The translations under genes and the position numbers were made by a program. Below, piece by piece: positions 12,446-53,445 of a stretch of DNA of 53,445 nt. Location of the stretch: the NCBI GenBank assembly GCA_046153645.1, contig JBJXGI010000086.1, positions 1 to 53,445 on the forward strand, written 5' to 3'. This stretch comes from Elusimicrobiota bacterium. GTDB lineage: Bacteria; Elusimicrobiota; Elusimicrobia; F11. The notes beneath the pieces are model-generated. The model saw nothing but the letters and a program-made list of their open reading frames with translations, did no database searches and had not been told where the DNA came from. Positions within the stretch are counted from its first letter, which is position 1, and each line of letters opens with the position of its first letter.

Positions 12446-12498
12446 TTAACCTAACCTTAATGAGACCTTAATCTGACACTGTTACGATTCTGTTACAA
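12446..12498 (+). promoter_or_regulatory. Conserved upstream element, copy 1: TTAAY boxes x3 and TGTTAC x2 at 11-bp period
   Basis: TTAACCTAACCTTAATGAGACCTTAATCTGACACTGTTACGATTCTGTTACAA; 42/53 identical without gaps to 49585-49637. Confidence 0.75.
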
Positions 12499-12500
12499 CT

Positions 12501-15500
12501 ATGGTGACTTTAAACACGCTCGATCAAAAACTTTTTGGATGGCCGGGGAAAATTATTCCGCGGTTATTTTCATTTGTAATTTTTTCTGCTTTATTTATTC
12601 TTATTTCCCTTCCTTTAAGCGCGGTTGATCGTATTTGGACAGGTCTTGGGAGCAATAATAATTTTTCAACAGCTGAAAATTGGAGTGGAACCGCTGTTCC
12701 TGGTGCCTCTGACCGAGCTATTTTCGATGGAACCTCTAATAAACCATGTAATATTAATACTGATGTTACCCTTGATACCATTCAAACAACACTAACCTCT
12801 ACTGCCACAATTACCCTTAACAGTGCTAGATTTTTAACGACTACGGTTCTTGATTTTCAGGGAGGAAGTTTCTCCGCTGTAGGGACGAACAATCAAATTA
12901 TTGTTAATAGTACTTTTAGTAAAGCTTCAGGTTTTTCTTTTAATGCGGGGAGTTGCACTGTTGATTTGGATGGATCGAATATCTATATGTTAGGGTCAAC
13001 GACTTTTTATCGTTTGATTGCAGATCATGTCGGCGCGACCGTTAAATTTGATGTTAATGAAACGGTTACCGTTTTAAATTCTCTTACCCTGCGAGATGGC
13101 GTATTCACTTCTTTAGTTGATGGTAGTCATTGGAAATTAAATTTTTTAGGAACTACTTTAATATTACAAGGAGCTCAGATTAAAGATTCTGACGCGTCTC
13201 TTGGACAAACAATCATTGCAGATGCGTCAAATACAAATTTAGGTAATAATATTAATTGGATTTTCCTCGCAGACGAGCCTCAAGCAGTTGGAAATTTACA
13301 AGTGTTCAAAGAAGCTCAAATTGGAGTCACTTGGAATAGTCCCCCTGGTGGAGCGCTTCAATATGAAATTCGTGCTGCGACTTACCCGATTAATAATGGA
13401 AATTTAACTTCTGTTTCGCTTGTTTTTAATATTGCTTCCTCGGTTTCAATATCAACTCAAAGTCTGGCTTTTTCAGTTGGAAATCTTTTGTTTGACACGG
13501 ATCATTTCATCTCAATAAGAGCCAAAAGAGCAGGTGCTTTTGGAGTTGCTAGTTTCGCCGGGCCTGTTCAATCTGGTAGATATTGGAAGCAGGCCGTGGG
13601 CCTACCTCAAGATATGGTTAAGCCCATGATTAAGTTGGGTGATTATAATTTAGATGGATATCTTGATGTTGCTGTTGTTGGGCAAGTGGGTACATCATCC
13701 AAGCTCAGGGTGTTTAGATGGGATTCGACAAATAAAACTTATGTTGGCGTCATTAATGAGCTTATGTTTGGCAATGATCCCTTGGTTGAGTGGATTGATG
13801 TGGATTCAGATGGGGATCTTGACCTTCTTTATTCAGATAGCGTAGATACGAATTTTTTAAGAAATGATTCTGGTGTTTTAACCCAGGCATCGATGGGGAA
13901 TATTTCCGCTTTTGCAAAGGGCGTTTTGGCTTCTGGTGATATTGATAATGACGGTGATGTTGATATTGTTATTTCTGCGCAAAGAACCGTAAATGATACT
14001 CCTGATATCCGTTTTTTAATTAATGAGAATCGCGTTCTTAATATGAGTCAGGAGGTTATAGAAAATAGCGCCATCACCAAAGGTTCATTGGCTTTAGGTG
14101 ATGTGGATTGGGATGGGAAATTAGATATTTTGATTAGCGGTGAATGGTCGGGAACGCGAAAATTAATGATTTACCGAAATGATTCCAAATTGAAGTTTAC
14201 GCAAATTTTAAATGCAACAGGTTTATCTAAGTCAGGCGTAGCGTGGACTGATTATGACGCAGATGGAGATTTAGACTTCGCTACCATGGGAGAGTTGGCC
14301 ACACTTCAAAAAACGGTACGCGTGTTTCGAAATGATTCGGGCTCATTTAACCAGTCTTTTAGTTTTCTACCGAGAATTGATTCAGGTGGAGACGCTCCCG
14401 GTTCGATTGCTTGGGCAGATGTTGATAACGATGGCGATTCTGATTTAATTGTTATGGGGAGTGATGGAACTCAGGCTCGTTTCGTTATTTATATGAACTC
14501 AAACCCAGCAGATCCTTCTACCTGGTCAACGATAACTGAGCCTATTGCCACAAATAAAGGTCTGCAAATGGGGTCCATTGTAGTGGGCGATATTGATGGC
14601 GACGGGCCTGGTCAAAGTGGAGATGTAGACTTTATTTTAGGCGGAAGTGATTCTGGTGGGCCAAAAATGTTCCTACTAGAAAATCTTTATTACTCTACTT
14701 ATTCTTTAACAAATCCCAATGATCGACCGGGAATCCCCCAAACACTTCTTGAAAGCCATTTCTTAGATGACGTTACATTAACTTGGGACTCTGCCACTGA
14801 TTCCGAAACGCCCTCTAACGCGCTTTCTTACCAAATTCAAGTTGCTTCACATAATTTCATTACTAATTCTTATGCGCTTTCCGGTGTCCATGGGACTCCT
14901 CTTTTAGGCAATTATTTTAACAACAGAATTTCTAGGTTGCAGTTGGGCACTAAAGTAAGGCTTATTGATGACGCAACATATTATTGGCGGGTTAAAGCTA
15001 TAGATAATGGAAATGCGCAGGGTTTTTATGTGCAGGCTTCATCATCATTTTATGTTGCTGCTGTACCGCCCGCGCCTATTACTGATTTAGAGGCACTGAC
15101 AGGGGCTCAAGTTACCTTAACTTGGTCGGCCCCTGCTGCACATCCAAACGGAGAGGGAATTATTTCTGGTTATGAAATTTATTATTCCTCGGCGGTTAAT
15201 CCAAATCCAGCGCAACTCGATCCTCCCATCTGGAACAGGTATCTGGCTTCAATAACACCACTTGCTCCAGGAGGAAAACAACAGCTCACGATGACAGGTC
15301 TTACTCCGTTTTTAAATTATTGGTTTGCGGTTAGATCGTTTAATAAAAAAACGTTTTCTGTTAATGCCGCTACAGCGACTGCTAAAGCGGGTCATTTTTT
15401 AGATCTTTCATCAAAAATATCGACGTCATTGGGTTTTTCTAGAGGAAATATTGCGTGGGCTGATTTAGATATTGATGGTGATTTGGATTTTGTGGTTTGC

Positions 15501-18500
15501 GGTAGCACAGGCTCTGGAGTTGTTTCTGCTGTTTATACTTATAATGGATCTCAATTTATTTCCGCGCAAAATTTAAACGAAAAATTAGACAACTGTAATT
15601 TAAGTTTGGGTGATTATGATAATGATGGATGGGTTGATTTGGGTATTCGAGGTCAACTTGCGGGGGGAGGTGCTTCTGGTTCTCGAATTTATATATATAA
15701 GAATAGAGCCAATAGTCAAACTCCGACAAATATATTTAATCCACCAAGCGACTCCATTGTTATTGATCCTTCTTTAAATGTGGGCTTATTTGGTCAAGTT
15801 CAATGGGCTGATTTTGATTCCAATGGAACTCAAGACTTAACTTTTATTGGGGCTAGTGGCGGTCTTTACGCTTTCACTTATAATTCATTGTTGTCTCGGT
15901 TTGAAAGTATTCGTATTTCAACTCAAGGTGCAGCTACAACTGGTGGTTCTTTGGCCTGGGCGGATATAGATTCTGATGGCGACCTAGACGTTGCTTTTGC
16001 TGTGCGAGACGAATCCGCTATTTTAAGGAACCAAGGAAATGGCGTGTTTACTCGAAGATGGACGGGCATCGGCGTTGAAGGCTCACAGCTGGCCTGGGGC
16101 GATTATAACAATGACGGTTTTTTAGATTTAGCACGAACCGGACAAACAACGTCCAATACTCAGATTTTTCAAATTCAAGTTGGGAATTCCAATTTAGATT
16201 ACAACGCGCAGGTTATTAATCTTTCAACAGGAATTCATACGGGCAATCGATTGCCAGGAATGTTGGCTTGGGCCGATTTAAATAATGATGGTTATCCAGA
16301 ACTCATGGGGACGGGGGCCAGAGGCTCATTAGAGTCGAAAAAATTTCTCGTTTTTTCTAATAAACATGCAACCACGCCTGATAGTTTTGAATTAGAAGAA
16401 TTCCCTTTTGGAAAGGATTTTGGCTTTCAGCAAGGGGGACTTGCTTTAGGTGACTATAATAACGATGGAGATGTCGATGTTATTGTTTCAGGTTTACTCT
16501 CCCAGCCTGGAGGCGGAGAAGTTCCTACTATTTCACTTCTCGAAAACTTAGAAAACAATCAAGGGGGAAATGCCCCCATACTTCCCGGGGCGCCGAGTAA
16601 TCTTTCTGCAAGTGTAAGCACCACAACAGGGCTGGCAACTCTTAGTTGGGACGGCCCATCTTACAGCGCTTCTTTAAGAAAGGGATTGTATTACAATGTT
16701 TTTGTCAAAGACCGTGATTCCAATCAGGTCTATATTTCTAGTGCTTATGCTTCTCCTTTATTAGGTAATAATTTGCTTCATTCAACAGGAGTGGTGAAAT
16801 TATCTGTTTCTTTGCCTGATTCGAAATCTTATTCCTTCCGAGTTCAATCTATTAATTCAGCTTTGATGAAAGGGCCTTTTTCAGGATTTGTTAATTTTTC
16901 CGTTCCTGCGATTCCGCCGGCTGTTATTACTGATTTAGCTGGTTTAGAGGGTTCTCAGGTTCGTCTTCATTGGACTGCTCCTGGCGAAGATGGTTCTGTG
17001 GGAACACCCACTCGCTACCGAATTTATTATGCGACAAATAGTTTTACAACGGGTCTTGAACCCGGTGTTTCGGTGTACACCATTGAAGGAATTTCTGCAA
17101 ACCCACCACTCAAAAAAGCAGGAGAACAAGAATCTCGTGATATTCCTATCCTGGTTCCTAATCTTTCATATTTTTTCAGAGTGGCAGCAGAAGATCGAAA
17201 TGGCGCGCGCGCCCCTTTAAGTGGTTCAGTCAATGTGGTTGCAACATATTTTGAAAAAGTCCCATTTGAAAGTTTTTCTGGTTTATCTGAATCTTCATTA
17301 GTTGTCGGAAATACAACAGTTGGCCAAGATTCTTATTTGGATATGGCCATGATGGGTGGAGACTCGACTACGTCTAGAGTATTAAGAGTGTTGGTGGGAC
17401 AAGGGGCGGGAGATTTTAATCAGGTTACTATTGCCAATGAAGGGTTGAAAGATGGCGCGCTTGCTCTTGTTGATATCGACCGCGATAATGATTTAGATTT
17501 TATTGCCTCCGGATTTAATTCTGCAAATACGCCTGTCACAAAAGTGTTTTTAAACAACAATAATTCTTACAGTGTCTTAGGGGCTACTTTACCAGCCATG
17601 ACAAAAGGTTCATTTGCCATTGCCGATATCGATGGAGATGGAGATCTTGATATTGTGGCTGTTGGCAGTGGGTTATCTGGGATTCAAATGTTTGAAAATA
17701 GATCAAATGATTTGGTGTTTAGTTTGCTTCCTCGAACGCTTTATAATGTTTCATTCTCATCCGGAGCTGCTATAACAACTGCTGATATAGATAGAGATGG
17801 GGATATTGACTTAGCGGTGAGCGGTTTTGATGGATTAAAAAACAGATTCATCCTTTTAAAACAAAACGCCGGTGTTTTTTCTGTTTTCAAAGAACCATTA
17901 GGAAGTGTTGATGGCTATAGAAATGGATCCTTGGCATTTGCCGATTTTAATTTAGATGGAAGATGGGATATTGTTGCTTCAGGTGAACGCCAAACTGGGA
18001 GTGAATTGGTCATTTATGAAGGGCCCATCAATCCTAGTGACCCTTATATTGTTCACTCCGCTAACCAACCGATGTCTTCGGCTGCTGGTGGTTCAAATTC
18101 ATTGGTTGTTGGTGATATCAATAATGATGGATACACTGATTTTGCTGTTGTTGGAAGTAGCGGTAATTTGGCCAATGCAGAGAGACTATTTGTCTATATA
18201 AATAATCAAAGTCTTCCTACCGGAGCGCTCAATTGGTCCCGCCAGCAACCGCTGGGAACAAACACTGGTCTTACTAAAGGTTCGTTGGCATTTGGGGATT
18301 TTGATAACGACCGCGATCTCGATTTGGTTGTCACGGGGCAAGTATCAACATCACGAATGATTTATTATTTTAATAATCGACAAGGTGAAGCAGGGCTTCC
18401 TATTAATGCCTCTCCTTCAAAGCCAGCACTTAATTTCATTCGCGATTCTCAAAGTAATCTCGTTACTTTTGATTGGACTCATCCAGGTTCAGAAAATGAT

Positions 18501-21500
18501 CGTATTGCTTATACCTATGATTTAGCAGTTGATTACCGCCGAAATGGAACGGGACCAACTTATCATTTGGTTACAGGACAACAACACTCGCCTCTGCATG
18601 GAAATGTTCCTACCATAGGTCTTGTTTCTTCAAGTCGAACACTGAGTTTATTTGATAACGCAACGTTCTATGTAAAGATTCGGGCTGTTGATACAGGGTT
18701 CCAAGTAAGTCCCTGGTCAGACCAAATTACAATAGATATTGGAAATATCCCTCCTGGCCCTATTACAGATTTTGTTGCAAGCAAATCAGGAAAAATTGAA
18801 TTAACCTGGACGGCTCCCGGAGGTGATGGAAATCAAGGTCAATTACAGTCTTATGAAATTCGATGGACGACGGAAGCTATTAATTCAGGGAATTTTTCCT
18901 CAGCAAACCTATTAAGCGGCATTCCAGCACCAAAACCTGTTGGCAGTGCGGAGAGTTTAATGGCTTCCAATGGTTTTAAAGTTGGGACGACATATTATTT
19001 CGGAATTAAAGGTTACGATGATGCTGGAAATCCAACGCCTTTGGTTACTTCCTCAGCAGTTGCAGGAAACTTTTCACTTGCGCAGACACTCACAGGATTG
19101 GGAGATAGTGCTATTGCCGCGGCTGATTATAATAATGATGGGCACCATGATTTGGTTTTAGCAGGAGAGGATAATTTACAGGGTTGGTTAAATTCAGGTT
19201 CTGGCGCTTTTAGTGCTGATGCTCAAATAAACCTTTCAGGTTTCACCTTTGCTTCAATTGCAGCTCTCAATTATAACAATGATGGAAATATTGATTTTCT
19301 TGTTTCCGGAACTCAGGCGGGAGCGAAAAAAGTTTTCTTATATAAAAATCAACGTCCCCTAACACCAGTATTAATTCCAGATGCGCATTTTAATATGACT
19401 GGTTTTGATGAAGGGTCTATTGCTTGGGGCGATTTTGATCGCGATGGTGATTACGATGCTGCTGTTGCAGGAAAAGGATTAGACGGAATTTACATTTATA
19501 AAAATAATTATAGAGAGAATCCACTCATCCCATTTATTGCTGAAAAAATTGATGACATGGTTTTGTCAAATGGCGCTTCACTGGCATGGGCAGACGCAAA
19601 TAATGATGGAGTTCTCGATTTGGCTGTGGCAGGACAAGATAGTGGTGGGTTTCCTCACTTCTGGATTTTTACTGGTAAAGCTATTGGTGGCTTTAATCCT
19701 CCTTATTTCATGATTCAAACGAGCGGAGCTGAAACAGATGGCTATGCGGAAGCTGCTCTTTCTTGGGCCGATTTTAATGGCGATGGGAAGTTGGATATTG
19801 CTATTACAGGTTATCGAAGAAATGGTCGTGATTCGCGCGTGTTCTTCAATCAAACTTCCGGTGCAAATTTAAGTTTTACCAATACTTCCCTTCCTGGCGC
19901 GGGCCTTTCTTCTGGCCGAAAAACTCAAGGTGCTTTAGTTGTCGCAGATCTTAATAATGATGGAAAATTTGATATCGCTCTTTCTGGAACTGACGGAACA
20001 CGTACAAGGTTCTTCACTTACCTTAACCAGTCTGGGTCTTGGGAATTGGTTGAACCTTTAGGTAAAAATAAGGGTTTAGATAAATCAGCTCTGAGTACCG
20101 CTGATTTCGACAAAGATGGTGATGTCGATTTGGTTTTATCTGGTTTTATGGGTGCAGTAAAACGAGTTTATGTTTTCTTAAATAAAGCAGCAGACGATTC
20201 TGGTTTTGGAGGTGCTAATTCACCACCCAATGCACCGTCTTCATTAACAGCGGGAATAAGTGGAAACCAAATTTCAATAAATTGGCCTGCCACCAGCGAT
20301 CCTGCCTCTGGTGGTCCCACTCCGAGTAACGCGTTAAATTATGATTTAGAAGTGTTAGTCAAACCCATTGGAAATATTTCTTATGACGTTTACCAAAGTT
20401 CGTATTTAGGAGCTCCTCTCCTTGGCAGTATTTCACCTACGCGTGGCGCTAATTTCTCTTATTCTCTTTCTGCCAGAGACAACGCTGATTATCAGATTCG
20501 TTTGCGTGCTGTGGATGCGGGGTTAACGCCTGGTCCCTGGTCAAGCGTACTTTCAACTTCTGTTCCTGCGATTCCACCAGATGCTATTTCAAATTTGGTT
20601 GCAACCCAAGGGTCTCAAATTAATTTGACTTGGACAGCCACAGGAGCTGATGGCAGCTTTGGCCAGGCCAGTGGTTATGACTTAAGATATTGGATTTCGG
20701 GTCAAAGTTATTCAGATCCGTTGGCCGTTTTGGTTGGATTGCCATCGCCCAAACCGTCTGGTCAAATAGAAACAGCTGTTGTTAGTGGGCTTGTTCCTGG
20801 AACTTCATACTTCTTTGGTATTCGTGCCTTTGATAACGCTTCTCAATTTTCTCCCGTTTCAAATATTGTGAATGCCACCGCAGGACTCTTTGAAGGATTT
20901 GCTGATTTAAGTGGACTTAAACAAGGCGGAGTATCTATCGGAAGCCTTTTCCCTGGAGAAAAGAATTTTATTGTGATGGGATCGAGCCAAGACGCTTCAG
21001 GTCAGGCGGTTTTGTATTCATACGCGTCAAACCAAGTGACGTTAAAACAAAATTTAAATAAAGAATTTTTGTCAGGGGTTCCTAGTTTTACTGATTTTGA
21101 TGATGATGGTAAGTTGGATTTAGTTATTGGCGGACAGGTGAAATTTTTCTCAAGTTCTCTTCCTAAAACCGTTTTCTTTAAAAATAATGGGACCGCTTTG
21201 GTTGAACAGCCGGGGATGGAATTATCTTTAGAGCCCAATTCTATTTCTTGGTCTGATTTCGATAATGATGGAGATTTGGATTTATTAATTGGAGGTCAAA
21301 CCTCTGGTTCATCACGTGTTTCACGCGTCTATGAAAATAGAAGTGGAGCTTTTGTTCAAGTATGGGAAAAGTCAACAGGTGGAACAGCTGCCTGGGTTGA
21401 TGTTGATCAAGATGGTTGGGTTGATGTTCTTTTGTCAGGCAAAGGTTTTTTTGCTAATTCCTCTCAAACGGCTGTTTATAAAAATATTTTTGTTTCTTCA

Positions 21501-39031: not shown

Positions 39032-39054
39032 ACACCCTATACCTTTTTTTTGAA

Positions 39055-39089: not shown

Positions 39090-39112
39090 ATGTTCGAATA
39101 AACTTTTTTAGG

Positions 39113-39151
39113 TTGTTATGTCGAATCTGTTCATGTACACTTAGTTGTACA
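39113..39151 (+). promoter_or_regulatory. Toxin-antitoxin promoter/operator with paired TGTACA palindromes
   Basis: TTGTTA(39113)-N17-TACACT(39136); TGTACA at 39134-39139 and 39146-39151 (12-bp offset), overlapping the -10. Confidence 0.7.
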
Positions 39152-39163
39152 AAAGGGGGAATT

Positions 39164-39433: not shown

Positions 39434-39744
39434 CCTATTCGATTCGACTATCAATAGCTGCACAAGCCATGCTTGTGGAAATTTCTGATCGTCGTATTCG
39501 TCAGAAAATTGCCGATAAAATAAATCAATTAAAGTTAAATCCTGAAATGCAGGGAAAACCTCTTTCGGGAGAATTAAGTCAATATCGAAGTATTCGCGCT
39601 GCCGCACAACGATACCGGATCATATATCAGGTTATTCGAGGACAAGTTGTTGTTCTTGTCATTGCCATTGGGATTAGAAAAGATCAAGATCGGAGTGATA
39701 TTTATCAAAGGGTCAAAAAGTTAATTCGCTTAAAGTTACTTTGA
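39430..39744 (+). CDS. RelE/ParE-family type II toxin
   Basis: YSIRLS..LKLNPEMQGKPLSGELSQYRSIR..RYRIIYQV..VVVLVIAIGIR; basic, 104 aa; coupled to the antitoxin. Confidence 0.88.
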   Translation: MTYSIRLSIAAQAMLVEISDRRIRQKIADKINQLKLNPEMQGKPLSGELSQYRSIRAAAQRYRIIYQVIRGQVVVLVIAIGIRKDQDRSDIYQRVKKLIRLKLL

Positions 39745-42800: not shown

Positions 42801-45800
42801 ATGATCGACGTACTGAAAAACCGGTTTTTAACCAAGTGTTTTCAAAAGAAGGAATTTTATTAAAAGCAAATATTATGTTTTTAGATTCTCCCGCGCCGCA
42901 ATCACCACCGGTAGCACCAGTTGTTTCCGCAAAACCTCAAACTCCACCGACTCAATTAACTTTTTTAAGAGCGGACGGCTCCATTAATAGCATACCAACA
43001 GTTCAAGCTCTAGTTATGGCGCAATACAATATTTTAATGAATATTGTTGCTCCAAAAGTAAGCGAAGTTAGAAATTGGGCTAATGCGAGTAAACAGTCAT
43101 TAGAGAATTTGTTAGGCCTAAAAAAAACACTTCTTTTTATTTTGAAACAAAATGAAGAAAGTCCGTGGTTATGGCGGATAGACAAAAGTAAGTTAGAAGA
43201 GTATTTGAGTTTTACTCGAGGTGCAATTGGGACTCGTGCTTCTAAAGAATTAACAGAATATATCGATTTTTCTGATGGTCTAGAGAATGATTTTATTTCT
43301 GTTGAAGCTCACCGCCAAAAAATAAAACGAATTCTTCGGCTTATTGAATTTCATCAGAACATTGGTGATGGAAATGAAAAATTAGGACTCTTGGAAGAAC
43401 GGGTGGATTGGAAGGCAGAACTTACGGAAGTTGAAGCGAGGTTATTAAGATTTTATAGTAAACAGAAATTTGTTGTTGACGTGAGAGGGATTCCTTATTT
43501 AGCCAGTGATATGGAAACACCAGACCCTCGAGCCACAGTGAGAATGCCCACCATCAGAAAATTGGATGAGATTTTAGATGCTGCTTATCAGCATTTTTAT
43601 TCTCCGTATAAACCCAAGTTAACAACACCTTCAACTGAATATGCGGGGAAAGTCATTTTTCAATCATTAGCGGTGTTAGGAAGTTTGGTTTGGATTGTTT
43701 CGATGTTTTTAACCCAAGAGTTTTACGTTTATCACATGATTGGAATATTCGCGATTATCTTATTCGCCATGCCACCCTTAGGCCTCATCGCCATCACCAT
43801 CGCGCCTTGGTGGGAACTACGCCAAACCATGCGCGACTTTAAAATATATTTAAAATCCCAAACAGAATCATTAACGGATCAAGAAAAAATTCTCTTAAAT
43901 AAGTTTTTATTGGAGCATAATCTGGACTCAGTGAAGGCCGCGTTACTAGGCAAGCGGTTGGGTCAATTTAGAAAAGCGTCTTTATGGATATACCAAAACA
44001 CCGGTTCATTTTATCTGGTTGCATTTACCCAAGTATTGGTTCACTTATGGCTTAATTTAAAAGCCCTGTTGAGCGATCGTATTTATTTAACCCAAAGGAA
44101 TTTATATTTGGGATGGTTCATCGGTTTTTTCTCCTTTGTGTTAAGCTTCTTTGGCGGCAATAAGAGGACAGAAGTAGTCCGGAATGAAACAGTTGATGAT
44201 GATGAAGTTCCTATTGGAAGAGAAGAGTTAGATCATGTACGTGGGACATTGAGACTTCCACCGCCGCATCATCAGAAAATTTTTGGAAAAACTAAAATTA
44301 CTTCTTTTGAAACGGGAGAGGCTGCATTAGATTATTTTTTAAAAATAATGGATGAAGGTCTTCTTCCGAATAAGGATACAGATGATGAGATAGCGCTGAT
44401 TCATAAGGAAGTTTTTCATTTATTGTTTGGAGAAGATAAAAATTATGATCTTCAGGCATCAAAAAATGACCCTCGACTTTTTGGGTTGTGGTTTAAAATA
44501 ATTGGAGTGATTCAGAATGATCGCTACGCGCAACCAGTCCCATTGCATTGGCTGAATCATTCAATTAGAGATCAGGTGTCTTCTTTATTGGTTGAAAAAG
44601 TAGTGCAAATATCTGGAATATTTGATAACGCTATTTTTCGCGATGCCTTTGATTCTTTTTCATCAGATCTTCAAGGGAAAATTGCGTTAGTGAAGAGTTT
44701 TATTGTTGGAATTGAAACAGCGGCTATTTTAAAAGAAAAACCTATTTTAGATTTCCTTGAAACTATTCCACTGAACATTCTTTTTTTAGATGAAAATAGC
44801 CAGTGGTACCCTTCTGCTCGTCCTTTGGTTGGATTTTTACTTTCTGAAATCTTGCTTGAAAATAAAAATATAGAAACCTATTTGTCTCGACTAGGCACAG
44901 TCTTTAATCAGTTAAACTCACCAGAAAAAGCCACTCTTCTATGGTTTATTGGGAAAATAAAAAGTCAAAATGAATTAAGAAAAAGACTTTTATGGTCAGA
45001 GTACCTACGAAGATTTGTGCTATCGGGTAAAAAAGAAAATTTGACTGCTGAGGAAAAGAGTTCTCTTGAGGATAAAATTAATGAGGTAAAATTCGATCTC
45101 GAAAATTTATCCAAATACGATCTGGTTTTTGAGGTAGGGCGTTTTGATAATTATGGCGATTTAATGCAGGCCATTGACATGGCAAAATTTGCTTCTAAAA
45201 ATAAGTACGGTAGAAAAGTTATTGTTGTTTTAGATCAGTCTCCAGGAGGAGCCAAACATAAGAAGGAACCTTCTCACTCTGAAAAAGCCGCCAGAGTTCT
45301 TGGCTTAAGTGATTCCATAACGGATCCTATTGAAATAGATGGGGTTATTTTTGTTGGCGCTAAGGAATTAAATAAAGCTATTTTGGGGCCTTTTTTTAGC
45401 GTGTTGGTTCCTGGTCATCCCATGTTCCACTCCGAAGCTTTTTATAAGAACAGAAAAGGGTTTATCCAGTTGGGAGAAAGTGCTCGTGGTCCGAATCCAA
45501 GAAATGTTACGGGAGATGGGGGCGTTTATCCTTACGCGGATGGTTTGTATCTTCAGCCAGGCGTGCTCTCTGATGAAATTGGTTTACCTTTAATGCAAGA
45601 GGAAATTCCAGGACTTGATAGAAAACATGAAAAGTCTGAATTTCAAGAAGAATTAAAGCTAACAGAAGCGCAACTTAATAAAAAATGGGTTTTTATTTAC
45701 ATGAGTGCGGTTCAAAAAGAAGATAAAAACAAAGTTAAAGAATTGATTGTGAAAATGTTGGATAAAGGTTGGCTAATTCTTTTAAAGTCTGATGATTATG

Positions 45801-48800
45801 ATTTTCAAGAGATCTCTCGCTTGGTTTTAAACTCAAAGGATGTAATTTCAGTTCCATCTTCTAATAGATCGTTTTTAACGGGACTTATGACAGCCACTGA
45901 ATTAAACCTGGTCACTGGAACCATGAGTTATTCAGAAGGAATTCGAATTTCTGCGAAATTTGGTGTTCCATTTTTCTATATGCGACCAGGTTGGTTGGCA
46001 AATACAGTACCTGGTTTGAAGTCATTTGTTGATCAATCTTCTTTGAATCCTGAAGATAAAATAAATCTTCAGAATTTTTTTGATAATCCATCTCTTTTTC
46101 TTGAAAAGGAAGATTTGATCCGCCGTGCCTTACAATTGCTTTCAAAAAGATTGGTGCAAGAAAAAGACACGGTCAATATTCTTTTTCCATTGATCGAGGC
46201 CGGTTTGTGGGCTGTTTCAAATTGGGGAGAAACAGACTCTCGTTTTTTAAACGGAACAAGGCGCCCAGTACTTGATGCTGAAATTATCAGAAGAAAAGAA
46301 CTTTCTTCTTCCGCCCTTGGTGGTCTCATGGCTTGGTTACGCGAATTGGTGCTTAAAATTTTTCCGAAAATGTCAGTGTCATTTTATAACCGTTGGGTGG
46401 CATTTTGGTTGGAGAACACATTGTCTATTTCGATCGCTTCTGCGGTGGCTTATCCTATTTATTCTTATACCCAAAATCTCGATTTGGCCCTGCTTGTCGG
46501 TAGTTTTTTAGCACTTGTGGTTTTTCTCGCGCTACATTTTATTGATTTATTACTTCCCAAAGAAAAACAGGGTCGTGGGGAAAATTATGTTATTGCATTT
46601 ATTATTTCAATATTAACGGGTCTTTCTGGAACAATAACTCTTGCCATTACTTTTAATGTCGTTTACTCACTCATTGCTGTTGCCGTTGTTTTCTTTACTT
46701 CTCACTTTATCGCTAACCAGTATTTTAAAGAGTTTTCGGTTTTAGAAGATATTATGAATGGGAGTAGTTTTAATGTCATTTTTGGAAAAAATACTAAGGT
46801 GGATTTATGGCGTTCAGATGTGAGTGGTCAATCGAAAACGGATTCTTTTAAGGTAATCAAGAATGATAACAGTGTTTTCATTCAGGAAAATAATTCTAAT
46901 CCTATTCAATTAACAGTAGATATGCCGGCTGGATATTTTTTTGATGGATTTCAACTTAAACTAAATCGAAATGGAAGCCTCACTATAATAAAAATGTATG
47001 AAGAAAATAATTTGCGGGTACAAGTTCTAAATGCCAGAGGTTGGAGCATTAAAAGATCAGATTATCTTGAAGAGGGAGATCCACAAAATGAATTGCCCCT
47101 TCATTATAATGATTTGCCGAATTTTTCGGATCATTGGAATAACATGTTGAACAGTTTTGGGTCATATGCAAACAATGACATGATAATATCCCAATTGAAC
47201 CAAATTATTATATGTGCCAATCAGAATCGCGCTGCTCTTCCCACCGCCAACCCCTTCTTAAGATTTGAAATAGAAAGAAATCTTCGATATTTACATGAAG
47301 AGGTATTGAAACTGCTTGAAAAAGAAACTGTAATCACAAATGACGTTTTGATTGAGAAAATAGGTTCAACAACTATTAAGAGATATTCTCTAGGAGAGAA
47401 TTCTCCTCTGAAACTCTCACTTTATAGTCTTCCAGTTGAAATAAATAAAGGTTTTGTTTATATCGAAATAAAAAGAGGGGACCGGTACTTCCCTTTGCCG
47501 TTTAATCTTTCAGATGGAAAAGATTTTGAACTTGTTTTGAAAAATGTAAATGACGTTAAAATTAATGTTCAAGATGATCTTGTTGAAGTCATTCCGGAGG
47601 GAGAAAGTAACCAAGCTGAGGCCTTTATGTTTAGGTTGCCCCCTATTAATAAAGCAATGTCCGATGAGCAGTTGAAGTTAGAGCTCGAAAAAATTTTCAA
47701 GGATGGAATTGATATTGAAAAAGATAATCTTCCTCCTTCATCTTCTTTTGGGAAAACTAATAAGAAGGAATTGGCGAACTATACCATCCCACATTCCTTA
47801 GTTGCTTCAGGTATTTTATTTAAACCCCAGACTTTTATTTCTGCTTCTGATCAAGAAAAGGAAATTCGTTATGAAATAGACACAATGAATATATTTCTGG
47901 AAATTACAGTAGATAAGAATGATAAGTTACTTTCTCTCGCTCTTCAAAAAAGAGATTCTGATAATTCAGCGCTTGAAAATATAGAATTTCAACTAAAAGC
48001 AACTCGTGGAAATATCCTCACTGATACGGCTGGTTTTATTCCAAATTCCCGAGATAAAATCAATTTAACGAAATTCCAAAATGTGGAAGTAAAACTTTTT
48101 GATGATGTTTTGTCGATTCGTCTGTTCGGTCCCGTTGTTGATTCTGAACAAGATGTTTACAGTTTCACGGGCTCCAATAAAAATAGTGCATTAACGTTAA
48201 CTTATGGCGGGAAAAAGTCTGAAAAAGCTTCCGCTAAATTGTCACCTAAACAACAGTTAGAAAATGAAGCGAAAAACATGGTTTCTTTTACGCAAGCATT
48301 AAACACCAATGATGAAGGAAAAATGGTTGAAAGCTTGATGAATGTACAGTTGTTGGGAGTGGGAGAAAAAACTCAAGACGTGTCAGTGGGGCGTTGGAAT
48401 GAGCTTCTATCAGATGCGGAATTTATAGAGATCTTAAAAATAGAAATGGCAAAAATTGTTCCCGCTCAAGTGGCTGGGAAGCCTCTTGTTTTGGGTCTTT
48501 TTGATGAAACTCCTTATTCTGATAGTCAACTCTTAGCAGCCGCCATCAAAGCGCGCTTACAGGGCCAGCCATTAAGAATTATTTTAAGTGATGCCCGATA
48601 TAACGGAAATAAACAGTTCTTCGATCAATTAAAGAAAACAGCTCAATTAGATATTTATAGCGGAGAGGATTTAACACAAATCGTTCAATCCAAAAAAGTG
48701 ATATCGAGTATGGTTCAAAGTAAACTCAAAATAGATCTCAATAGTGTTTCATTGGCCCTTCCAGAAGGATTTGTTGTTGATATTGAGGGGTATTCACCCA

Positions 48801-48889
48801 TTCGCCTTCGAGATTTCATGCCTCCGCTGACTAGAATAAACACAGAGGCTATTTTGGTTATTTATCGAGCTATCCAAGTAGCAGCGTAA
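39857..48889 (+). CDS. Giant (3010 aa) mosaic membrane protein of unknown function
   Basis: Open ORF; N-terminal signal-like segment; N-domain with QDVH / VEG / VVGGFH motifs; three hydrophobic clusters; GT-B-like region (DNYGD..LVTGTMSYSE..VPFFY). GTG start uncertain. Confidence 0.8.
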   Translation: MNKAKFFRRISLLLLPCYLSTQVFFLHAAESSLWEDRRKALHTTQSPQSNKQFASLPSSLTHFGVEEFRNLTESLPSLKKTFETSVSVSQPNLKKIPPVYTEYLNELSRNFGMVKEVYVPRQKSKTPLIVLLQDVHLNFEAQNNLAQMLIALNQKAQKKLETLVVGVEGAFGPFDFKRYRALNNLDLQKKLADFFLQENRIAAPSYLGLTAPVVSFQMEGIDDKDSYEKNVEAYLSSRRKKESLLIELNKTKAELNNEKIKEFGKDLFAHEAQKTAYAEGKLSFGDYIQYLSALNEKLSRSEDSLDQDLTLEQFLVAYSMEKNLSLSLVEKERSEILKILIPQLSKSEVDELLALSLGHRMGQISFADYYRHIKNMILKNGIALSRYTSFDKYIQYVLLCESLNAEKLFSALDELETKLSQKLSLDDGDRRLIHKSDWVNLTFKLLDFSLTPQEWERYKKLREPSPSPLPQSGRGLGRGNEITSFESFYIQADIRSEKMVENLLMAVPSREKNPGTRNQEPETSSAAISALVVGGFHTPHIMNLLKKKGIPFALVQPVLTKIDESTGSAYLSVFHREKTPLDELFKGEKLFMAPKELALGNSVGNPVTGAALLAAGVVSQFLNSLPVKPDTGLSVSAQNENEFVVRNNNTGQDLVVVRVSNTPDQPGEGEFKISLPGNPNLYLRAVVSGGNLSRWGKTLLSLATKNGNRRLKALIGINRSFTEVFKSIYRGPLGFFNDHPERSVSQAFGILGMWVAMGFAFVDVSLYSPLLALIYNILAHLTYTFLAVLFGLPLLSIPPAPGNGQFSVTNFTIPIASNFLPAFNELRGNVKDGKIAVYEGITEIDKNSGALVPFVDIENDSSGTQFIIIRYKNNVYVLRNKNLSVVKSENLFIQTGNFPELTNRWSQINRSQAPLNMKMNVAAQLLNVFFIREQNLLAPTNPNLKPDLIEALLTFYQDIGLIGSFDGSPYDFSLNLSWVPGYDRRTEKPVFNQVFSKEGILLKANIMFLDSPAPQSPPVAPVVSAKPQTPPTQLTFLRADGSINSIPTVQALVMAQYNILMNIVAPKVSEVRNWANASKQSLENLLGLKKTLLFILKQNEESPWLWRIDKSKLEEYLSFTRGAIGTRASKELTEYIDFSDGLENDFISVEAHRQKIKRILRLIEFHQNIGDGNEKLGLLEERVDWKAELTEVEARLLRFYSKQKFVVDVRGIPYLASDMETPDPRATVRMPTIRKLDEILDAAYQHFYSPYKPKLTTPSTEYAGKVIFQSLAVLGSLVWIVSMFLTQEFYVYHMIGIFAIILFAMPPLGLIAITIAPWWELRQTMRDFKIYLKSQTESLTDQEKILLNKFLLEHNLDSVKAALLGKRLGQFRKASLWIYQNTGSFYLVAFTQVLVHLWLNLKALLSDRIYLTQRNLYLGWFIGFFSFVLSFFGGNKRTEVVRNETVDDDEVPIGREELDHVRGTLRLPPPHHQKIFGKTKITSFETGEAALDYFLKIMDEGLLPNKDTDDEIALIHKEVFHLLFGEDKNYDLQASKNDPRLFGLWFKIIGVIQNDRYAQPVPLHWLNHSIRDQVSSLLVEKVVQISGIFDNAIFRDAFDSFSSDLQGKIALVKSFIVGIETAAILKEKPILDFLETIPLNILFLDENSQWYPSARPLVGFLLSEILLENKNIETYLSRLGTVFNQLNSPEKATLLWFIGKIKSQNELRKRLLWSEYLRRFVLSGKKENLTAEEKSSLEDKINEVKFDLENLSKYDLVFEVGRFDNYGDLMQAIDMAKFASKNKYGRKVIVVLDQSPGGAKHKKEPSHSEKAARVLGLSDSITDPIEIDGVIFVGAKELNKAILGPFFSVLVPGHPMFHSEAFYKNRKGFIQLGESARGPNPRNVTGDGGVYPYADGLYLQPGVLSDEIGLPLMQEEIPGLDRKHEKSEFQEELKLTEAQLNKKWVFIYMSAVQKEDKNKVKELIVKMLDKGWLILLKSDDYDFQEISRLVLNSKDVISVPSSNRSFLTGLMTATELNLVTGTMSYSEGIRISAKFGVPFFYMRPGWLANTVPGLKSFVDQSSLNPEDKINLQNFFDNPSLFLEKEDLIRRALQLLSKRLVQEKDTVNILFPLIEAGLWAVSNWGETDSRFLNGTRRPVLDAEIIRRKELSSSALGGLMAWLRELVLKIFPKMSVSFYNRWVAFWLENTLSISIASAVAYPIYSYTQNLDLALLVGSFLALVVFLALHFIDLLLPKEKQGRGENYVIAFIISILTGLSGTITLAITFNVVYSLIAVAVVFFTSHFIANQYFKEFSVLEDIMNGSSFNVIFGKNTKVDLWRSDVSGQSKTDSFKVIKNDNSVFIQENNSNPIQLTVDMPAGYFFDGFQLKLNRNGSLTIIKMYEENNLRVQVLNARGWSIKRSDYLEEGDPQNELPLHYNDLPNFSDHWNNMLNSFGSYANNDMIISQLNQIIICANQNRAALPTANPFLRFEIERNLRYLHEEVLKLLEKETVITNDVLIEKIGSTTIKRYSLGENSPLKLSLYSLPVEINKGFVYIEIKRGDRYFPLPFNLSDGKDFELVLKNVNDVKINVQDDLVEVIPEGESNQAEAFMFRLPPINKAMSDEQLKLELEKIFKDGIDIEKDNLPPSSSFGKTNKKELANYTIPHSLVASGILFKPQTFISASDQEKEIRYEIDTMNIFLEITVDKNDKLLSLALQKRDSDNSALENIEFQLKATRGNILTDTAGFIPNSRDKINLTKFQNVEVKLFDDVLSIRLFGPVVDSEQDVYSFTGSNKNSALTLTYGGKKSEKASAKLSPKQQLENEAKNMVSFTQALNTNDEGKMVESLMNVQLLGVGEKTQDVSVGRWNELLSDAEFIEILKIEMAKIVPAQVAGKPLVLGLFDETPYSDSQLLAAAIKARLQGQPLRIILSDARYNGNKQFFDQLKKTAQLDIYSGEDLTQIVQSKKVISSMVQSKLKIDLNSVSLALPEGFVVDIEGYSPIRLRDFMPPLTRINTEAILVIYRAIQVAA
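41246..41293 (+). repeat. REP-like hairpin inside the 3010-aa ORF
   Basis: CCCTCTCCCGC-aaa-GCGGGAGAGGG perfect 11-bp stem (41257-41281) with C-rich and G-rich flanks; translated as PSPSPLPQSGRGLGRG. Confidence 0.8.
41394..41421 (+). repeat. Heptamer tandem repeat (AACCAGG-like x4) inside the ORF
   Basis: ATCCAGG AACCAGG AACCAGG AGCCAGA. Confidence 0.75.
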
Positions 48890-49573: not shown

Positions 49574-49637
49574 TTAAGGCCATCTTAACTTGACCTTAAT
49601 GAATCCTTAATCCCGCACTGTTACAGTAGTGTTACAA
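49574..49637 (+). promoter_or_regulatory. Conserved upstream element, copy 2: TTAA boxes x4 and TGTTAC x2 at 11-bp period
   Basis: TTAA at 49574, 49585, 49596, 49607; TGTTAC at 49619 and 49630; matches 12446-12498. Confidence 0.75.
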
Positions 49638-49685
49638 GGAAACGCAGTTCAGGCACCTAAGATAAGTTAAGGGAGAAAAGAAGCC

Positions 49686-51662
49686 ATGAAAAATAATGAA
49701 CTTAAAAAAATGTGGGTTAAACTGGGAAGTGTCCTCACCATCATTTTCAGTTTCATTTCTTTGAGCTTGGCAGGTTCAGCCGGGACTGTTTCTAATAACT
49801 TCCTTAAAATTGGCCTGGGTGCCAGAGGATCTGCCATGGGAGAAGCCCAAGCCGCTGCTTCTGAAGACGTGACCGCCGCTTTTTGGAACCCCGCCGCGCT
49901 TTCCAACCTTCGATTTCAAGAAATCACTTTTATGCATCATGATATGGTTGAAGGTGTTCGCCTTCAACAAGTGCAAGTGGGGCTTCCACTCCAAAACAAC
50001 AAAGGAACCTTTTCTGCCGGCCTCAGCATGATGGATTTTGGATCTATCAATGGTTACAACGATGCGGGTCTCCCCACGGGTTCCGTTGAAGCTTCTGACC
50101 TTCTCCTTTCCGCTTCTTATGCTCGCGCCATTTCTAAAAAATCAAAATTAACGGGCGGATTTACTTTTAAATATCTCAATTCTAAGTTGGCCGGATATTC
50201 TGCTTCGGCTCCCATGCTCGACTTAGGCCTTCTTTTGCCCATTGAAACCGGACGAATGAAAGGCCTAAAGCTTTCTTTCGGAATGCGTAATGTAGGACCT
50301 TCTATTAAATACGATACGCAAAGTTCACAACTTCCTCGTCAGGTTGTTTTTGGAAGCGCTTTTTCCGCTTTAGGGGGAAATTTGAATATAGCCTTAGACG
50401 CTATTCAATCTGTCGATTCCAATCTTTATTTTGCAACAGGTCTTGAATATAGAGTGTTCGACATGCTCAATTTACGTTTGGGTTACAATGGACGCAGCAA
50501 TTTTGTCGGAAATGGCATTAGTTATGGAATGGGGCTTCGTTTCACACAATGGAATTTAGATTATGCGTTTGTTCCATTTGGTGATTTAGGTGCTACCAAT
50601 AGAATTAGTGTGGGTGTCCGTTTTGGTCGTGCTATCCAAATCAAAAATGCCGACGATCAAGTTGAATTCAATTACAATTTCGCTAAACGCCAATTGGCTT
50701 TAGGTAAAGGGGTGGAAGCTTATAGCACCTTATCTGATCTTCTCCTTATTGCTCCTTGGCATAAACCTTCCGTTGAACTCAAAGCCAAAATTCAAAAACA
50801 ATTCGACGAAATGGCGGTTTCTAAAAATAATGCCCGCATGGAAGCTGAAATTGCGGACAAATTCACTTTGGCTAAAGCTGCCTTTGACAGAGATGAGTTG
50901 GTTGAAGCTCGCAAAGGTTTTGAAACCATTCTTGCTCTTCAGTCAGAGCATGTTGGTTCTAAAGTTTATTTAGAAAGAATTCAAAATAGATATCAAAGCT
51001 TAGCCCATGAATCTTTCAAACAGGGAATGGACTACTACGCTGCGGCTGATTATGAAAAAGCCCAGATGTTCTTTGAGAAAACCCTCACAATTGATCCAAC
51101 CCACGCTGATGCCAAGGCCCAATTGGATAAAACAATCCAATTGATAGCTGATGTCACCAAGAGAGCCCGCGAGATGGAATTATTAGCCGGAGCGGGTGAA
51201 GCTTACAAAGAAGGCTTGGTGGCTTATCAGAAAAATGATCTCGAGAAGGCCTTGGCTAAATTTGAAGAAGTCAAAACCCAAATGCCTGAATATGAAGAAG
51301 TGAGCCGATATATAGAGTTAACCAAACAAACCTTGGCCGGCATTCTCTTCGAACAAGCCAAAGTAAATGTTGAAAACGGTCAGCTAGAAGAGGCTGTGAC
51401 CAAACTTAAAAGAGCCGATGAGTTAACCCCCAAAGCCAGCAATATCCAAACCGCTCTTGAAATGGCGAATAAAGACTTAGCCACCAAAAATGCGGAGTTG
51501 TCTAAGAAACTCTATAAAGATGGTTTAGAAGCTTACCTTGGTGGTCAAACCGATAAAGCCGAAAACCTTTGGAATAAAGCCCTTGAATTGGATGGCAATA
51601 ACGAGGAAGCTAAGAAGGCCATTGAAAAAGTTCAAGAAAAGAAGAAATTTGAAGGGAAATAA
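49686..51662 (+). CDS. PorV/PorQ-family outer-membrane beta-barrel fused to C-terminal TPR repeats
   Basis: Signal peptide; FLKIGLGARGSAMGEA..AAFWNPAAL PorV-type N-terminal motif; amphipathic strands ending LDYAFVPFGDLGATNRISVGVRF; TPR-like helices from about aa 325. Confidence 0.85.
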   Translation: MKNNELKKMWVKLGSVLTIIFSFISLSLAGSAGTVSNNFLKIGLGARGSAMGEAQAAASEDVTAAFWNPAALSNLRFQEITFMHHDMVEGVRLQQVQVGLPLQNNKGTFSAGLSMMDFGSINGYNDAGLPTGSVEASDLLLSASYARAISKKSKLTGGFTFKYLNSKLAGYSASAPMLDLGLLLPIETGRMKGLKLSFGMRNVGPSIKYDTQSSQLPRQVVFGSAFSALGGNLNIALDAIQSVDSNLYFATGLEYRVFDMLNLRLGYNGRSNFVGNGISYGMGLRFTQWNLDYAFVPFGDLGATNRISVGVRFGRAIQIKNADDQVEFNYNFAKRQLALGKGVEAYSTLSDLLLIAPWHKPSVELKAKIQKQFDEMAVSKNNARMEAEIADKFTLAKAAFDRDELVEARKGFETILALQSEHVGSKVYLERIQNRYQSLAHESFKQGMDYYAAADYEKAQMFFEKTLTIDPTHADAKAQLDKTIQLIADVTKRAREMELLAGAGEAYKEGLVAYQKNDLEKALAKFEEVKTQMPEYEEVSRYIELTKQTLAGILFEQAKVNVENGQLEEAVTKLKRADELTPKASNIQTALEMANKDLATKNAELSKKLYKDGLEAYLGGQTDKAENLWNKALELDGNNEEAKKAIEKVQEKKKFEGK

Positions 51663-51664
51663 GA

Positions 51665-53044
51665 GTGAAATCAAAAATCCTTAAAACCATATTAATTCCT
51701 CAACCTACCCTCTCCCGTGCCGGGAGAGGGGTTTTGGTTTTTATGGGGGTTCTTTCTTTTTTGACTTTAACGCCTGTTTTGGCTATCCCTTCTGCGGCCA
51801 CTCCTGAAGATAAAATTCTTTCAAAAGCTTTTTCAGCCTATATGGACGGTAATGATAAAGCGGCGATGGGGTATTTTGAAGAAGTCGTTCGCTTAAATCC
51901 TAGTAATGAAGCTGCCAAAAAAGGGTTAGAAAAAGTGAAAGTTCGTCTCAAAAAAGCTGGTGAGATTGAAAAAGAGAAAGCGCTAACTTTAGCCAAAGCT
52001 AAAACAGCAGAAGGAAAAGGTTTTTTACGCAATGGAGATGTGGTGGGGGCCATTGACAGTTTCCATAGTGCCACCAATGCCGTTCCTAACTATGCTCCCG
52101 CAGAAGGTGAATTAAAGACAATAAAAAAAGAAATGTTGCGGAATTCTGAGAAAAAACGAGTTAACCTTACCCAATGGGCACTCGCCAGAGGAACACTGGC
52201 TTATTTGGAAAAAGATTGGGCTAAAGCTTATCGGATTTGGTCAGAGCGATTACGAATCGATAAATCAGATGTGGTCTTATCTAATGCCAATGCAAGGGCG
52301 GAGAATAATTTTAAACGGCTCATGATCGCAGAACAAGAAGAATTTTTTAGAAGGGGCGCGCGCGCTTTTTATGGTCAAGGAATGTATGAGCAGGCCAAAA
52401 TATCATGGGAAAAAGTACTTGCTCTTCGCGGTGACGATCAAGAAGCGCTAGAGGGCATGGCTCGCTCAGAACAAGCTGTTTTAGCTGCGCAAGGAAAAGG
52501 AAAAGACAATCAAATGACCGATTTATTGGAAGAGGGTTTACAACAATATGCCAATCAAAATTGGACCAAAGCACTGTCAGTTTTTCAGCAATTGTCTGAA
52601 ATGGAATCTGGCTTTACGACAGCGAAAGAATATATCGTGAAAATAAATGCGCATTTAGAAAATAGAGTTTACTCACCCGCCAGCACAGCTGGGACATGGA
52701 AACCAAACAAAGCCTCTAATCAAAGTAATTCTCCTCTCGACTTGTCCGACAAAAATGAAAATGTGACCGAGAGTAAAAAAGAATTAGAAAAACAATTAAA
52801 TCGAGACCCAGGAAACATTAAAGTTCAACAGGAACTTGATAAGGTTGTTAAACAGCAAGAAGATGAAGGGGAGCGAATTTATAAAGACGGCTTGATTGCT
52901 TATTCTCAAGGAAATCGGGCCTTAGCCATGGAGCATTGGAAAAAAGTTTTGATTGTTAACCCCGAGCATAAAAAAGCATCTGCAGCGCTTAAAAAAGCAA
53001 AAGCTGAGGAGGAGCGCTCCACTGAGCCTGCGGCAACCGAATGA
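51665..53044 (+). CDS. Exported tetratricopeptide-repeat protein
   Basis: Hydrophobic signal segment, then multiple TPR units (AMGYFEEVVRLNPSN; AKISWEKVLALRGDD; AMEHWKKVLIVNPEH). Confidence 0.85.
   Translation: MKSKILKTILIPQPTLSRAGRGVLVFMGVLSFLTLTPVLAIPSAATPEDKILSKAFSAYMDGNDKAAMGYFEEVVRLNPSNEAAKKGLEKVKVRLKKAGEIEKEKALTLAKAKTAEGKGFLRNGDVVGAIDSFHSATNAVPNYAPAEGELKTIKKEMLRNSEKKRVNLTQWALARGTLAYLEKDWAKAYRIWSERLRIDKSDVVLSNANARAENNFKRLMIAEQEEFFRRGARAFYGQGMYEQAKISWEKVLALRGDDQEALEGMARSEQAVLAAQGKGKDNQMTDLLEEGLQQYANQNWTKALSVFQQLSEMESGFTTAKEYIVKINAHLENRVYSPASTAGTWKPNKASNQSNSPLDLSDKNENVTESKKELEKQLNRDPGNIKVQQELDKVVKQQEDEGERIYKDGLIAYSQGNRALAMEHWKKVLIVNPEHKKASAALKKAKAEEERSTEPAATE
51698..51731 (+). repeat. REP-like hairpin inside the 5' end of the TPR gene
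   Basis: CCCTCTCCCG-tgc-CGGGAGAGGG perfect 10-bp stem (51708-51730) preceded by CCTCAACCTA; same family as 41246-41293. Confidence 0.75.
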
Positions 53045-53445
53045 AAAAACTATTTTATTTATCTTTACTCTTCGTTACCCTTGCTTCAGCGGAAGAACCT
53101 ATTCAAGATTCAAACGCGATTGATTACACCTCTACTTTAAGTTCGGAACCGATCAAAAATGATGAAATTCCCGTCATACCCAGTGTTCCAGAACCTGCAT
53201 TGAACGTTAGCTCATCTTCGGCTTCCATATTACCTCCCCTTATTTCAACAAGTAGCCCAAGCGTAGATCAATTGTTAGAAAATTATGGGTTAAGCGAATC
53301 ATCTCAGCCGGTATTGGAAAAAGTTTCTATTGATGATTCTGGAAATAGATTATTGATTTTAATTCAAGTTTCTAAGCCGGTGGAATGTTTTGTGTTTGAG
53401 CGTCGTGACCCACCTTCTTTATTCATTCAATTTACAGGAACAACT
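53041..53445 (+). CDS. Partial exported protein with a probable AMIN-like domain (runs off the window)
   Basis: Not in the ORF track. My translation is open to the end: MKKLFYLSLLFVTLASAEE.., a Pro/Ser-rich linker, then VLEKVSIDDSGNRLLILIQVSKPVECFVFERRDPPSLFIQF. ATGA overlap with the TPR gene stop. Confidence 0.7.
   Translation, partial: MKKLFYLSLLFVTLASAEEPIQDSNAIDYTSTLSSEPIKNDEIPVIPSVPEPALNVSSSSASILPPLISTSSPSVDQLLENYGLSESSQPVLEKVSIDDSGNRLLILIQVSKPVECFVFERRDPPSLFIQFTGTT

Follow-up and report, generated by a model that had tools for sequence, protein, structure and literature searches.

How might a bacterium outside the Bacteroidota export and hold a protein of almost a megadalton that ends in what looks like a type IX secretion system (T9SS) sorting domain? 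The question is raised by a stretch of 53,445 nucleotides (here called the window), which is contig C79 of the 2.63-Mb, 99.7% complete genome of an uncultured Elusimicrobiota bacterium. The original prediction for this DNA placed a T9SS-like system of C-terminal sorting domains (CTDs) and a PorV-type barrel outside the Bacteroidota. All of the genes that it named were confirmed in place by scans for open reading frames and domains, and the host phylum indeed lies outside the Fibrobacterota-Chlorobiota-Bacteroidota (FCB) group; a passage in a 2024 paper (PMC11285876) states that T9SS genes are absent from phyla outside that group. In what follows, G000 is the host genome, C numbers are its contigs, L numbers are loci read in the host or in other genomes, phylum-wide counts refer to 151 Elusimicrobiota genomes, and all window features lie on the forward (+) strand. 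The giant protein is probably exported through a homologue of SprA, encoded elsewhere in the genome, and displayed on a barrel of the PorV family that carries an arm of tetratricopeptide repeats (TPRs). Judging from gene order and DNA signals, what the window adds would be a unit of carrier, sensor kinase and lone CTD, together with a regulon.

The cargo gene (12501..38693) encodes 8730 amino acids (about 938 kDa, or 0.94 MDa) with a signal peptide, a single hydrophobic segment at the N-terminus, FG-GAP repeats (24 Pfam stretches; 34 motif matches from residue 381 to 3741), Fn3 repeats after these, and a conserved end of about 370 residues in which a Big_5-like domain, found in shorter orthologues, is followed by the CTD. 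The reading frame is not an artefact, because relatives have orthologues of 8766 and 8596 residues within a family that spans 1027-8766 residues. The predicted pairing of signal peptide and CTD in this protein was borne out, and the claimed resemblance of its C-terminus to a type-A sorting domain was borne out indirectly. The last 90 residues match neither PF18962 nor TIGR04183, with hits confined to the CTD portions of the models for PorU (E 6e-6) and PorZ (E 2.5e-4), but the giant's CTD is homologous to that of the neighboring lone CTD (hhalign 99.9%, E 4.5e-37), and only through the profile of the latter can the giant be counted among the T9SS cargoes. The lone CTD (38705..39031), correctly predicted to consist of a signal peptide and a CTD and nothing else, is conserved and exceeds the cut-offs of both type-A models (PF18962, 32 bits against 27; TIGR04183, 41 bits against 23). 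The best PDB matches of its profile are T9SS CTDs (PorZ 5m11, 8glj_D and PorU 6za2).

The presumed carrier (49686..51662; 658 residues) consists of a PorV-family barrel to about residue 316 and a 342-residue TPR arm, as had been proposed. It scores 159 bits with the PorV family model NF033709 (cut-off 90) and stays below the PorV and PorQ equivalog cut-offs. The predicted model (pLDDT 87.5) has 14 barrel strands and a helical TPR tail, and the best fold match is PorV (8gl6_F/6h3i_F), ahead of FadL; a FadL porin was ruled out by this ranking and by the hidden Markov models (HMMs). Because the strand number is even, the TPR arm is predicted to be periplasmic. The arm matches 21 of the 151 genomes, and in five relatives of two other families an orthologous cargo gene directly precedes the PorV-TPR gene, so that the co-occurrence and synteny proposed as a check on the CTD/PorV system do hold among relatives.

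The original prediction recognized no SprA, PorKLMN or PorU. This is true of the window, but not of the genome, which encodes a SprA homologue of 1801 residues (G000:C100:33154-38559), and the suggestion of a minimal system without a translocon is not supported. The homologue is divergent (TIGR04189, E 1.5e-25, 88.7 bits against a cut-off of 200), and a PDB search with the single sequence gave no match; a profile of 20 SprA homologues was needed, and it matches SprA 6h3i_A over four collinear stretches (E 2.5e-37). SprA homologues are present in 140 of the 151 genomes, and in most of 19 loci read the gene adjoins genes that we take, from their sequence, to be lptF/G-like. A self-built profile finds 21 barrels in the host genome, or 18 PorV-family genes after three distant ones are dropped, and 12 of 15 barrels scanned pass the NF033709 cut-off. 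The genome also has 16 CTD genes, of which 12 have a barrel as the next or previous gene and a 13th has one across a 38-nt contig overlap; both CTD genes of the window are among those with no direct barrel neighbor. These CTD and barrel counts are partly circular, because the profiles were built from the host genome's own proteins. Several of the 18 carriers have C-terminal TPR, LysM or immunoglobulin (Ig) tails. The barrels at G000:C11:22419, C40:43637 and C99:2399 adjoin type-B-like (CHU_C) CTD genes and form a clade of their own (100/99 support), which in these sequences seems to echo the split between type A and type B.

The remaining T9SS parts were sought genome-wide with HMMs, as the original prediction had proposed. 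The GldL/GldM motor gave no match in G000 at E<=0.1 and GldM none in any of the 151 genomes, and the GldK/GldN hub gave no match in G000; these searches had no positive-control genome, so very divergent GldK, GldL, GldM or GldN proteins are still possible. The PorU sortase was not detected in G000, since all 13 matches to NF033707 are limited to the CTD end of the model, positions 942-1087. Another protein of the genome matches PorW/SprE, but only unspecifically through TPRs, and no search was aimed at SprE, SkpA, Plug or PorG. In sum, the outer-membrane core of a T9SS is present, but the system falls outside the T9SS proper in its motor, hub and sortase.

The system shares with the T9SS of Flavobacterium johnsoniae (SprA/Sov, PorV and type A CTDs; 6H3I, 8GL6) a SprA homologue, barrels of PorV fold, Ig-like CTDs and signal peptides. 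It differs in its host outside the FCB group, in a SprA homologue that is shorter (1801 versus 2403 residues) and below the family cut-off, in the lack of detectable GldK/L/M/N and PorU, and in having 18 carriers rather than one general PorV. In the pairing of one carrier gene with one cargo gene, a carrier with a predicted periplasmic C-terminal tail and the likely retention of the cargo, it recalls the type B cargoes with dedicated carriers (SprB-SprF, PG1035-PorP). Unlike in those systems, the window's CTDs score as type A, the barrel is of the PorV family (PF11751 gave one sub-threshold match, on another barrel), and the tail is a 342-residue TPR arm rather than a short cysteine tail.

Passages in PMC10994853 and PMC12635249 describe how the CTD in F. 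johnsoniae binds loops of the carrier inside SprA, with energy needed to pull the loaded carrier away, and how type B cargoes remain on dedicated carriers; carrier release from SprA is given in PMC10994853 as the step that needs the Gld motor. With this CTD-carrier-SprA precedent, the cargo would be exported across the inner membrane by Sec by means of its signal peptide, and its CTD would bind the carrier loops inside the SprA-like pore. Since PorU was not detected, the CTD would be left uncut and the cargo would stay on its carrier in the manner of type B cargoes. The carrier is presumably the cognate one, because 13 of the 16 CTD genes lie directly beside a barrel gene.

The carrier's most conserved partners, overlooked in the original prediction, are two-component genes at 7580-12338. 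The first encodes a membrane sensor histidine kinase (7580..9031) in which domain scans and profiles find a single periplasmic domain of Cache/PDC type and a HAMP domain. It is followed by an OmpR/PhoB-family response regulator (9120..9812; PF00072 and PF00486, with the best PhoB/YycF models below cut-off) and, conserved just upstream of the cargo, by a receiver-kinase hybrid and a sigma-54 activator (9833..12338, the two genes at 9833-10990 and 10980-12338). The gene order in the window's own family and one sister family is periplasmic adaptor (MFP, membrane fusion protein), kinase, OmpR-type regulator, receiver-kinase, sigma-54 activator, cargo, lone CTD (not always present), PorV-TPR, a second TPR protein (TPR2), AMIN-TolC, AcrB and AcrB. 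The TPR tail also matches 18 loci in other classes. Seven of these read cargo, PorV-TPR, kinase, and two read kinase, regulator or regulators, PorV-TPR, lone CTD, the two upstream kinases lying within 5 kb of the carrier. With three more from an untrained kinase set, the kinase is directly downstream of the carrier in 10 other-class loci. With a profile of the periplasmic domain built from own-class kinases only, eight of the nine other-class kinases are recovered at E<1e-5 and the ninth scores 0.15; of the 18 other kinase-like proteins that G000 encodes, the profile picks up a single one. PorV-TPR is flanked by a CTD-only gene in 4 of the 18 other-class loci and in seven own-class relatives. 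Elsewhere in the genome, a paralogue of the kinase and a response regulator adjoin a 5710-residue giant gene (G000:C6:17726-19918).

The two operons of the window were predicted to share one upstream element, and they do: box 1 (12442..12500) and box 2 (49581..49639) both consist of three TTAA at 11-bp spacing followed by TGTTAC-N5-TGTTAC, in box 1 a few bases before the ATG, and share 40 of 51 positions, compared with 8-15 when the register is shifted. The full element has only two matches in the 2.63-Mb genome, both in the window; TGTTAC-N5-TGTTAC by itself is a weak candidate for the operator, with eight matches in the genome, and its first half presumably corresponds to an extended -10 element. 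In relatives of the window's own family the box occurs in 11 copies in nine genomes, before cargo or carrier and often a few bases from the ATG, and Ca. Obscuribacterium magneticum, of the same phylum, has the same order of box, PorV-TPR (63% identical), TPR2, TolC and AcrB. A 16S search of the host assembly gave no match, and it is this orthologous locus that assigns the host to its phylum. A matrix made from relatives alone ranks both window boxes first in G000 and scores at least 15 before 6 of 43 genes of a giant-protein family, against 3 of 2137 others (Fisher 3e-9; no hits in 20 column shuffles). This family has 47 members in G000 (the window's and 46 others) of up to 10,179 residues, with a common N-terminus of about 450 residues, several hydrophobic segments and no CTD. 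Sites of OmpR/PhoB-family regulators are arranged as 11-bp direct repeats across the -35 region, and the regulator encoded at 9120..9812, close to the boxes, is their likely reader.

A precedent for a kinase in this setting comes from Porphyromonas gingivalis, where, according to a passage in PMC12152298, the small cargo PorA has a CTD that binds the kinase PorY and activates it. Extrapolating from gene linkage, a lone CTD that is not exported, or the 342-residue TPR arm, might touch the Cache domain of the kinase much as the PorA CTD does PorY. The OmpR-type regulator would then bind the 11-bp repeats over the -35 region and activate the cargo, the carrier, the efflux pump described below and several giant membrane proteins. 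In this way the kinase would read the state of the export route and adjust how much cargo is displayed at the surface. The likeness to the PorA-PorY-PorX-SigP pathway lies in the association of the secretion genes with a membrane kinase and a tiny CTD protein. Here, in contrast, the CTD protein lacks a passenger domain, a DNA-binding domain forms part of the regulator, which is of OmpR/PhoB type, the genes form a cluster, a TPR arm extends the carrier, and the connection is a proposed one, suggested by gene linkage. The neighboring regulator is a receiver joined to Trans_reg_C rather than a PorX-type protein (no genome-wide search for PorX was made).

Several observations weigh against this scheme of SprA-like export, carrier display and kinase feedback. 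Nine of the 18 other-class tail loci have no such kinase nearby (five of them were read with only 1.5-kb flanks); seven of these nine do have a response regulator directly upstream. Among 21 untrained kinase loci, three have a barrel-TPR gene directly upstream, three a TPR protein with no barrel seen and three an MFP, and the other 12 have neither a TPR protein nor an MFP in that position. More genomes have a kinase of this family than have the carrier (61 versus 21 of the 151, the latter counted by the tail), and the kinase's sensor domain is a single, generic Cache/PAS-type fold of a kind that often binds small molecules; in a fold search this domain matched nothing at E<=0.001. Five basic residues are present in the lone CTD, compared with six reported as needed in PorA, and three relatives (G035, G020 and G037) have no lone CTD between cargo and carrier. 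No box of this layout was seen outside the window's own family, and the patterns used did not find a box before the cargo in the other two families. Finally, loci in kin are not independent, because kin share gene order. Taken as a whole, the scheme in which the cargo leaves through the SprA-like pore and is displayed on a dedicated carrier, with the lone CTD or the TPR arm providing feedback to the kinase, is a plausible model that we hold at slightly less than even confidence.

Behind the carrier, the predicted tight coupling of a TPR gene and an AMIN-like gene is real: TPR2 (51665..53044; signal peptide) begins 3 nt after PorV-TPR and is overlapped by 4 nt by the next gene (53041..53445), the 5' end of an AMIN-TolC fusion. 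The original prediction had advised reading beyond position 53445. The contig end overlaps contig C87 by 20 nt, and C87 continues the fusion with TolC and then encodes AcrB, a 305-residue protein and AcrB. The AMIN assignment comes from an orthologue (Atlas 0.91); the AMIN part is fused to an outer-membrane efflux domain, and this fusion to TolC rules out a PilQ-type secretin. With the adaptor MFP (6348..7577; TIGR01730, 185.6 bits against a cut-off of 94.9) serving the downstream TolC and AcrB genes, the tripartite set of a resistance-nodulation-division (RND) pump is complete, comprising MFP, permease and TolC-family channel; named subfamily cut-offs were not reached, and the best PDB sequence match of AcrB1 is MdtB. 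The PorV-TPR/TPR/AMIN operon had been read as the export machine, which is not supported: AMIN-TolC belongs to the RND cassette, often with no PorV. Of 41 genomes, 18 encode TPR2; they belong to three families, and the gene is always beside AMIN-TolC and directly precedes TolC in all 16 relatives in which both genes were read, including those in which both have left the carrier. A barrel is present in only 5 of 64 metagenome loci of the same AcrB subfamily (1 of 27 among loci of at least 15 kb). Because loci of this subfamily rarely hold a barrel and TPR2-TolC is separable from the carrier, the pump can best be regarded as a separate, co-regulated module that is attached to the carrier operon in two families. 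A close counterpart is MdtABC-TolC/BaeSR, a heteromeric RND pump with a two-component system, which likewise has an MFP, two AcrB-type genes, TolC, a kinase and an OmpR-type regulator. Unlike in that system, TolC here has an AMIN domain and a dedicated TPR partner, and the pump is clustered with an adhesin, a carrier, an FtsH-like protease and the 305-residue protein. The last (L037:4810-5724) has an invariant N-terminal cysteine and is found in 59 of the 151 genomes next to AcrB or an FtsH-like gene, with Atlas relatives in Omnitrophota. In another organism (L156:1-9755), an MFP and two AcrB genes of the same subfamily come directly after a CTD cargo and a PorV barrel whose tail is OmpA-like.

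BaeSR co-regulates MdtABC, and the kinase of the window might similarly sense an unrelated small molecule or envelope stress, merely co-regulating adhesin, carrier and efflux pump, with export and display as proposed above and the TPR arm only a tether. This alternative is possible though doubtful. It gains from the Cache/PAS sensor fold, the position of MFP directly before the kinase in the window's own class, the occurrence of the kinase family without the carrier and the resemblance of AcrB1 to MdtB; it has difficulty with the other classes, which keep the kinase at PorV-TPR though the RND genes are gone, and with the recurrence of CTD-only genes beside the carrier. The lone CTD might instead be a plug or decoy that fills empty carrier barrels and has no role in signaling. 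It is nothing but a sorting domain, its profile matches the cargo CTD at 99.9%, and it is encoded beside the carrier, but a plug would leave the kinase linkage unexplained, and as a full account this has very little to recommend it. A plug or decoy role can also coexist with SprA-like export and kinase feedback.

The pump itself has been considered as a private proton-driven motor that, by way of TPR2 and the TPR arm, pulls the loaded carrier off the SprA-like pore, each tailed carrier bringing its own motor. Parts of the T9SS literature fit this idea, in that carrier release is the energy-requiring step (PMC10994853) and SprF reaches its track by a periplasmic C-terminal tail (PMC12635249). 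In addition, the distribution within the window's own class is one and the same for PorV-TPR, TPR2 and the AcrB pair, and two other tailed carriers head motor operons: a tailed barrel precedes FliF/FliG-MotAB in 18 of 20 loci, and TPR-ExbBD-TonB in all 8 orthologous loci and none of 21 paralogous ones. An RND motor is nevertheless unlikely, given the rarity of the barrel among loci of this AcrB subfamily, the one family in which TPR2-TolC and the AcrB genes lie away from the carrier, and the lack of RND genes beside 17 of the 18 other-class tail loci; moreover, none of the three motor modules is phylum-wide, as SprA is. Nor are the FliG-MotAB or ExbBD-TonB operons supported as a general motor for SprA, being found in 53 and 26 of the 151 genomes (paralogues included) compared with 140 for SprA. 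Export of the giant by a secretin (type II or type IV pilus) or by TolC, with the PorV barrel only capturing it outside, is rated as quite improbable: the genome has three secretin genes and the operon a TolC, but a SprA homologue is kept in 140 of the 151 genomes along with CTD/PorV pairs, a Sec-type signal peptide heads the giant, and the pump belongs to the RND type. Type I secretion uses ABC-type rather than RND transporters.

The motor operons have features of their own. A second PorV-TPR (L012:1861-12000, on G000:C81) is the first gene of an operon that also encodes a membrane-anchored FliG-TPR protein, two coiled-coil proteins, FlbD, MotA and MotB, and at L003:5062-18709 (G000:C43) a CTD cargo is followed by a PorV with an Ig-like tail, a 994-residue TPR protein, ExbB, two ExbD and a TonB-like protein. 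Three relatives (L058, L062 and L070) have a further operon of FliG-like, MotA and two MotB genes upstream of the super-locus, and G000 also has a full flagellar cluster. The motility section of a preprint on magnetotactic Elusimicrobiota (10.1101/2022.07.08.499144) records unexplained motAB, fliG and flbD.

Between the window's CTD genes and the carrier lie a Phd/YefM and ParE/RelE toxin-antitoxin pair (39050..39744), a gene for a 3010-residue protein (39857..48889) and a DUF559 gene. The stretch from lone CTD to PorV-TPR varies or is empty in relatives, so these genes are local insertions, and the toxin-antitoxin pair stands outside the system. The 3010-residue protein is a member of the giant family, lacks a CTD and has no Pfam or NCBIfam match; other members of its family carry the box. 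Upstream of the pump genes are an FtsH-like AAA+ metalloprotease (4696..6339; PF00004 and PF01434, TIGR01241 below cut-off), syntenic in relatives, and, at 53-4135, a multiheme cytochrome c, a FixC/FixX-like pair and a squalene/phytoene synthase gene, syntenic in the window's family.

Literature searches, with most subscription papers and bioRxiv supplements outside their reach, found no description of these T9SS-like parts in Elusimicrobiota, and neither a motor-less SprA system nor a link of the carrier to kinase or RND pump in print. A term look-up found no mention of the T9SS in the main text of an Elusimicrobia survey (10.1101/765248), a giant-gene preprint (10.1101/2023.11.21.568195) or the magnetotactic Elusimicrobiota preprint.

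A broader and tentative reading is that of a modular, motor-less system in which each PorV carrier would be a trans-envelope adaptor, its barrel holding one surface cargo and its tail plugged into a differing inner-membrane partner. The partners would be the sensor kinase (with its CTD-only ligand) and the RND pump here, and a FliG-MotAB or ExbBD-TonB motor elsewhere; the device in the window might then be a sensor of surface contact or of secretion state through which a regulon of giant envelope proteins is turned on. With SprA found across the phylum, its carriers dedicated and tailed, and no motor detected, it becomes testable how a SprA pore can be emptied without GldLM. The generality of CTD sensing by a kinase as a control of this export route, so far represented by PorA-PorY only, likewise becomes testable, and the box offers a ready regulon that would link the adhesin to the many giant proteins of these bacteria.

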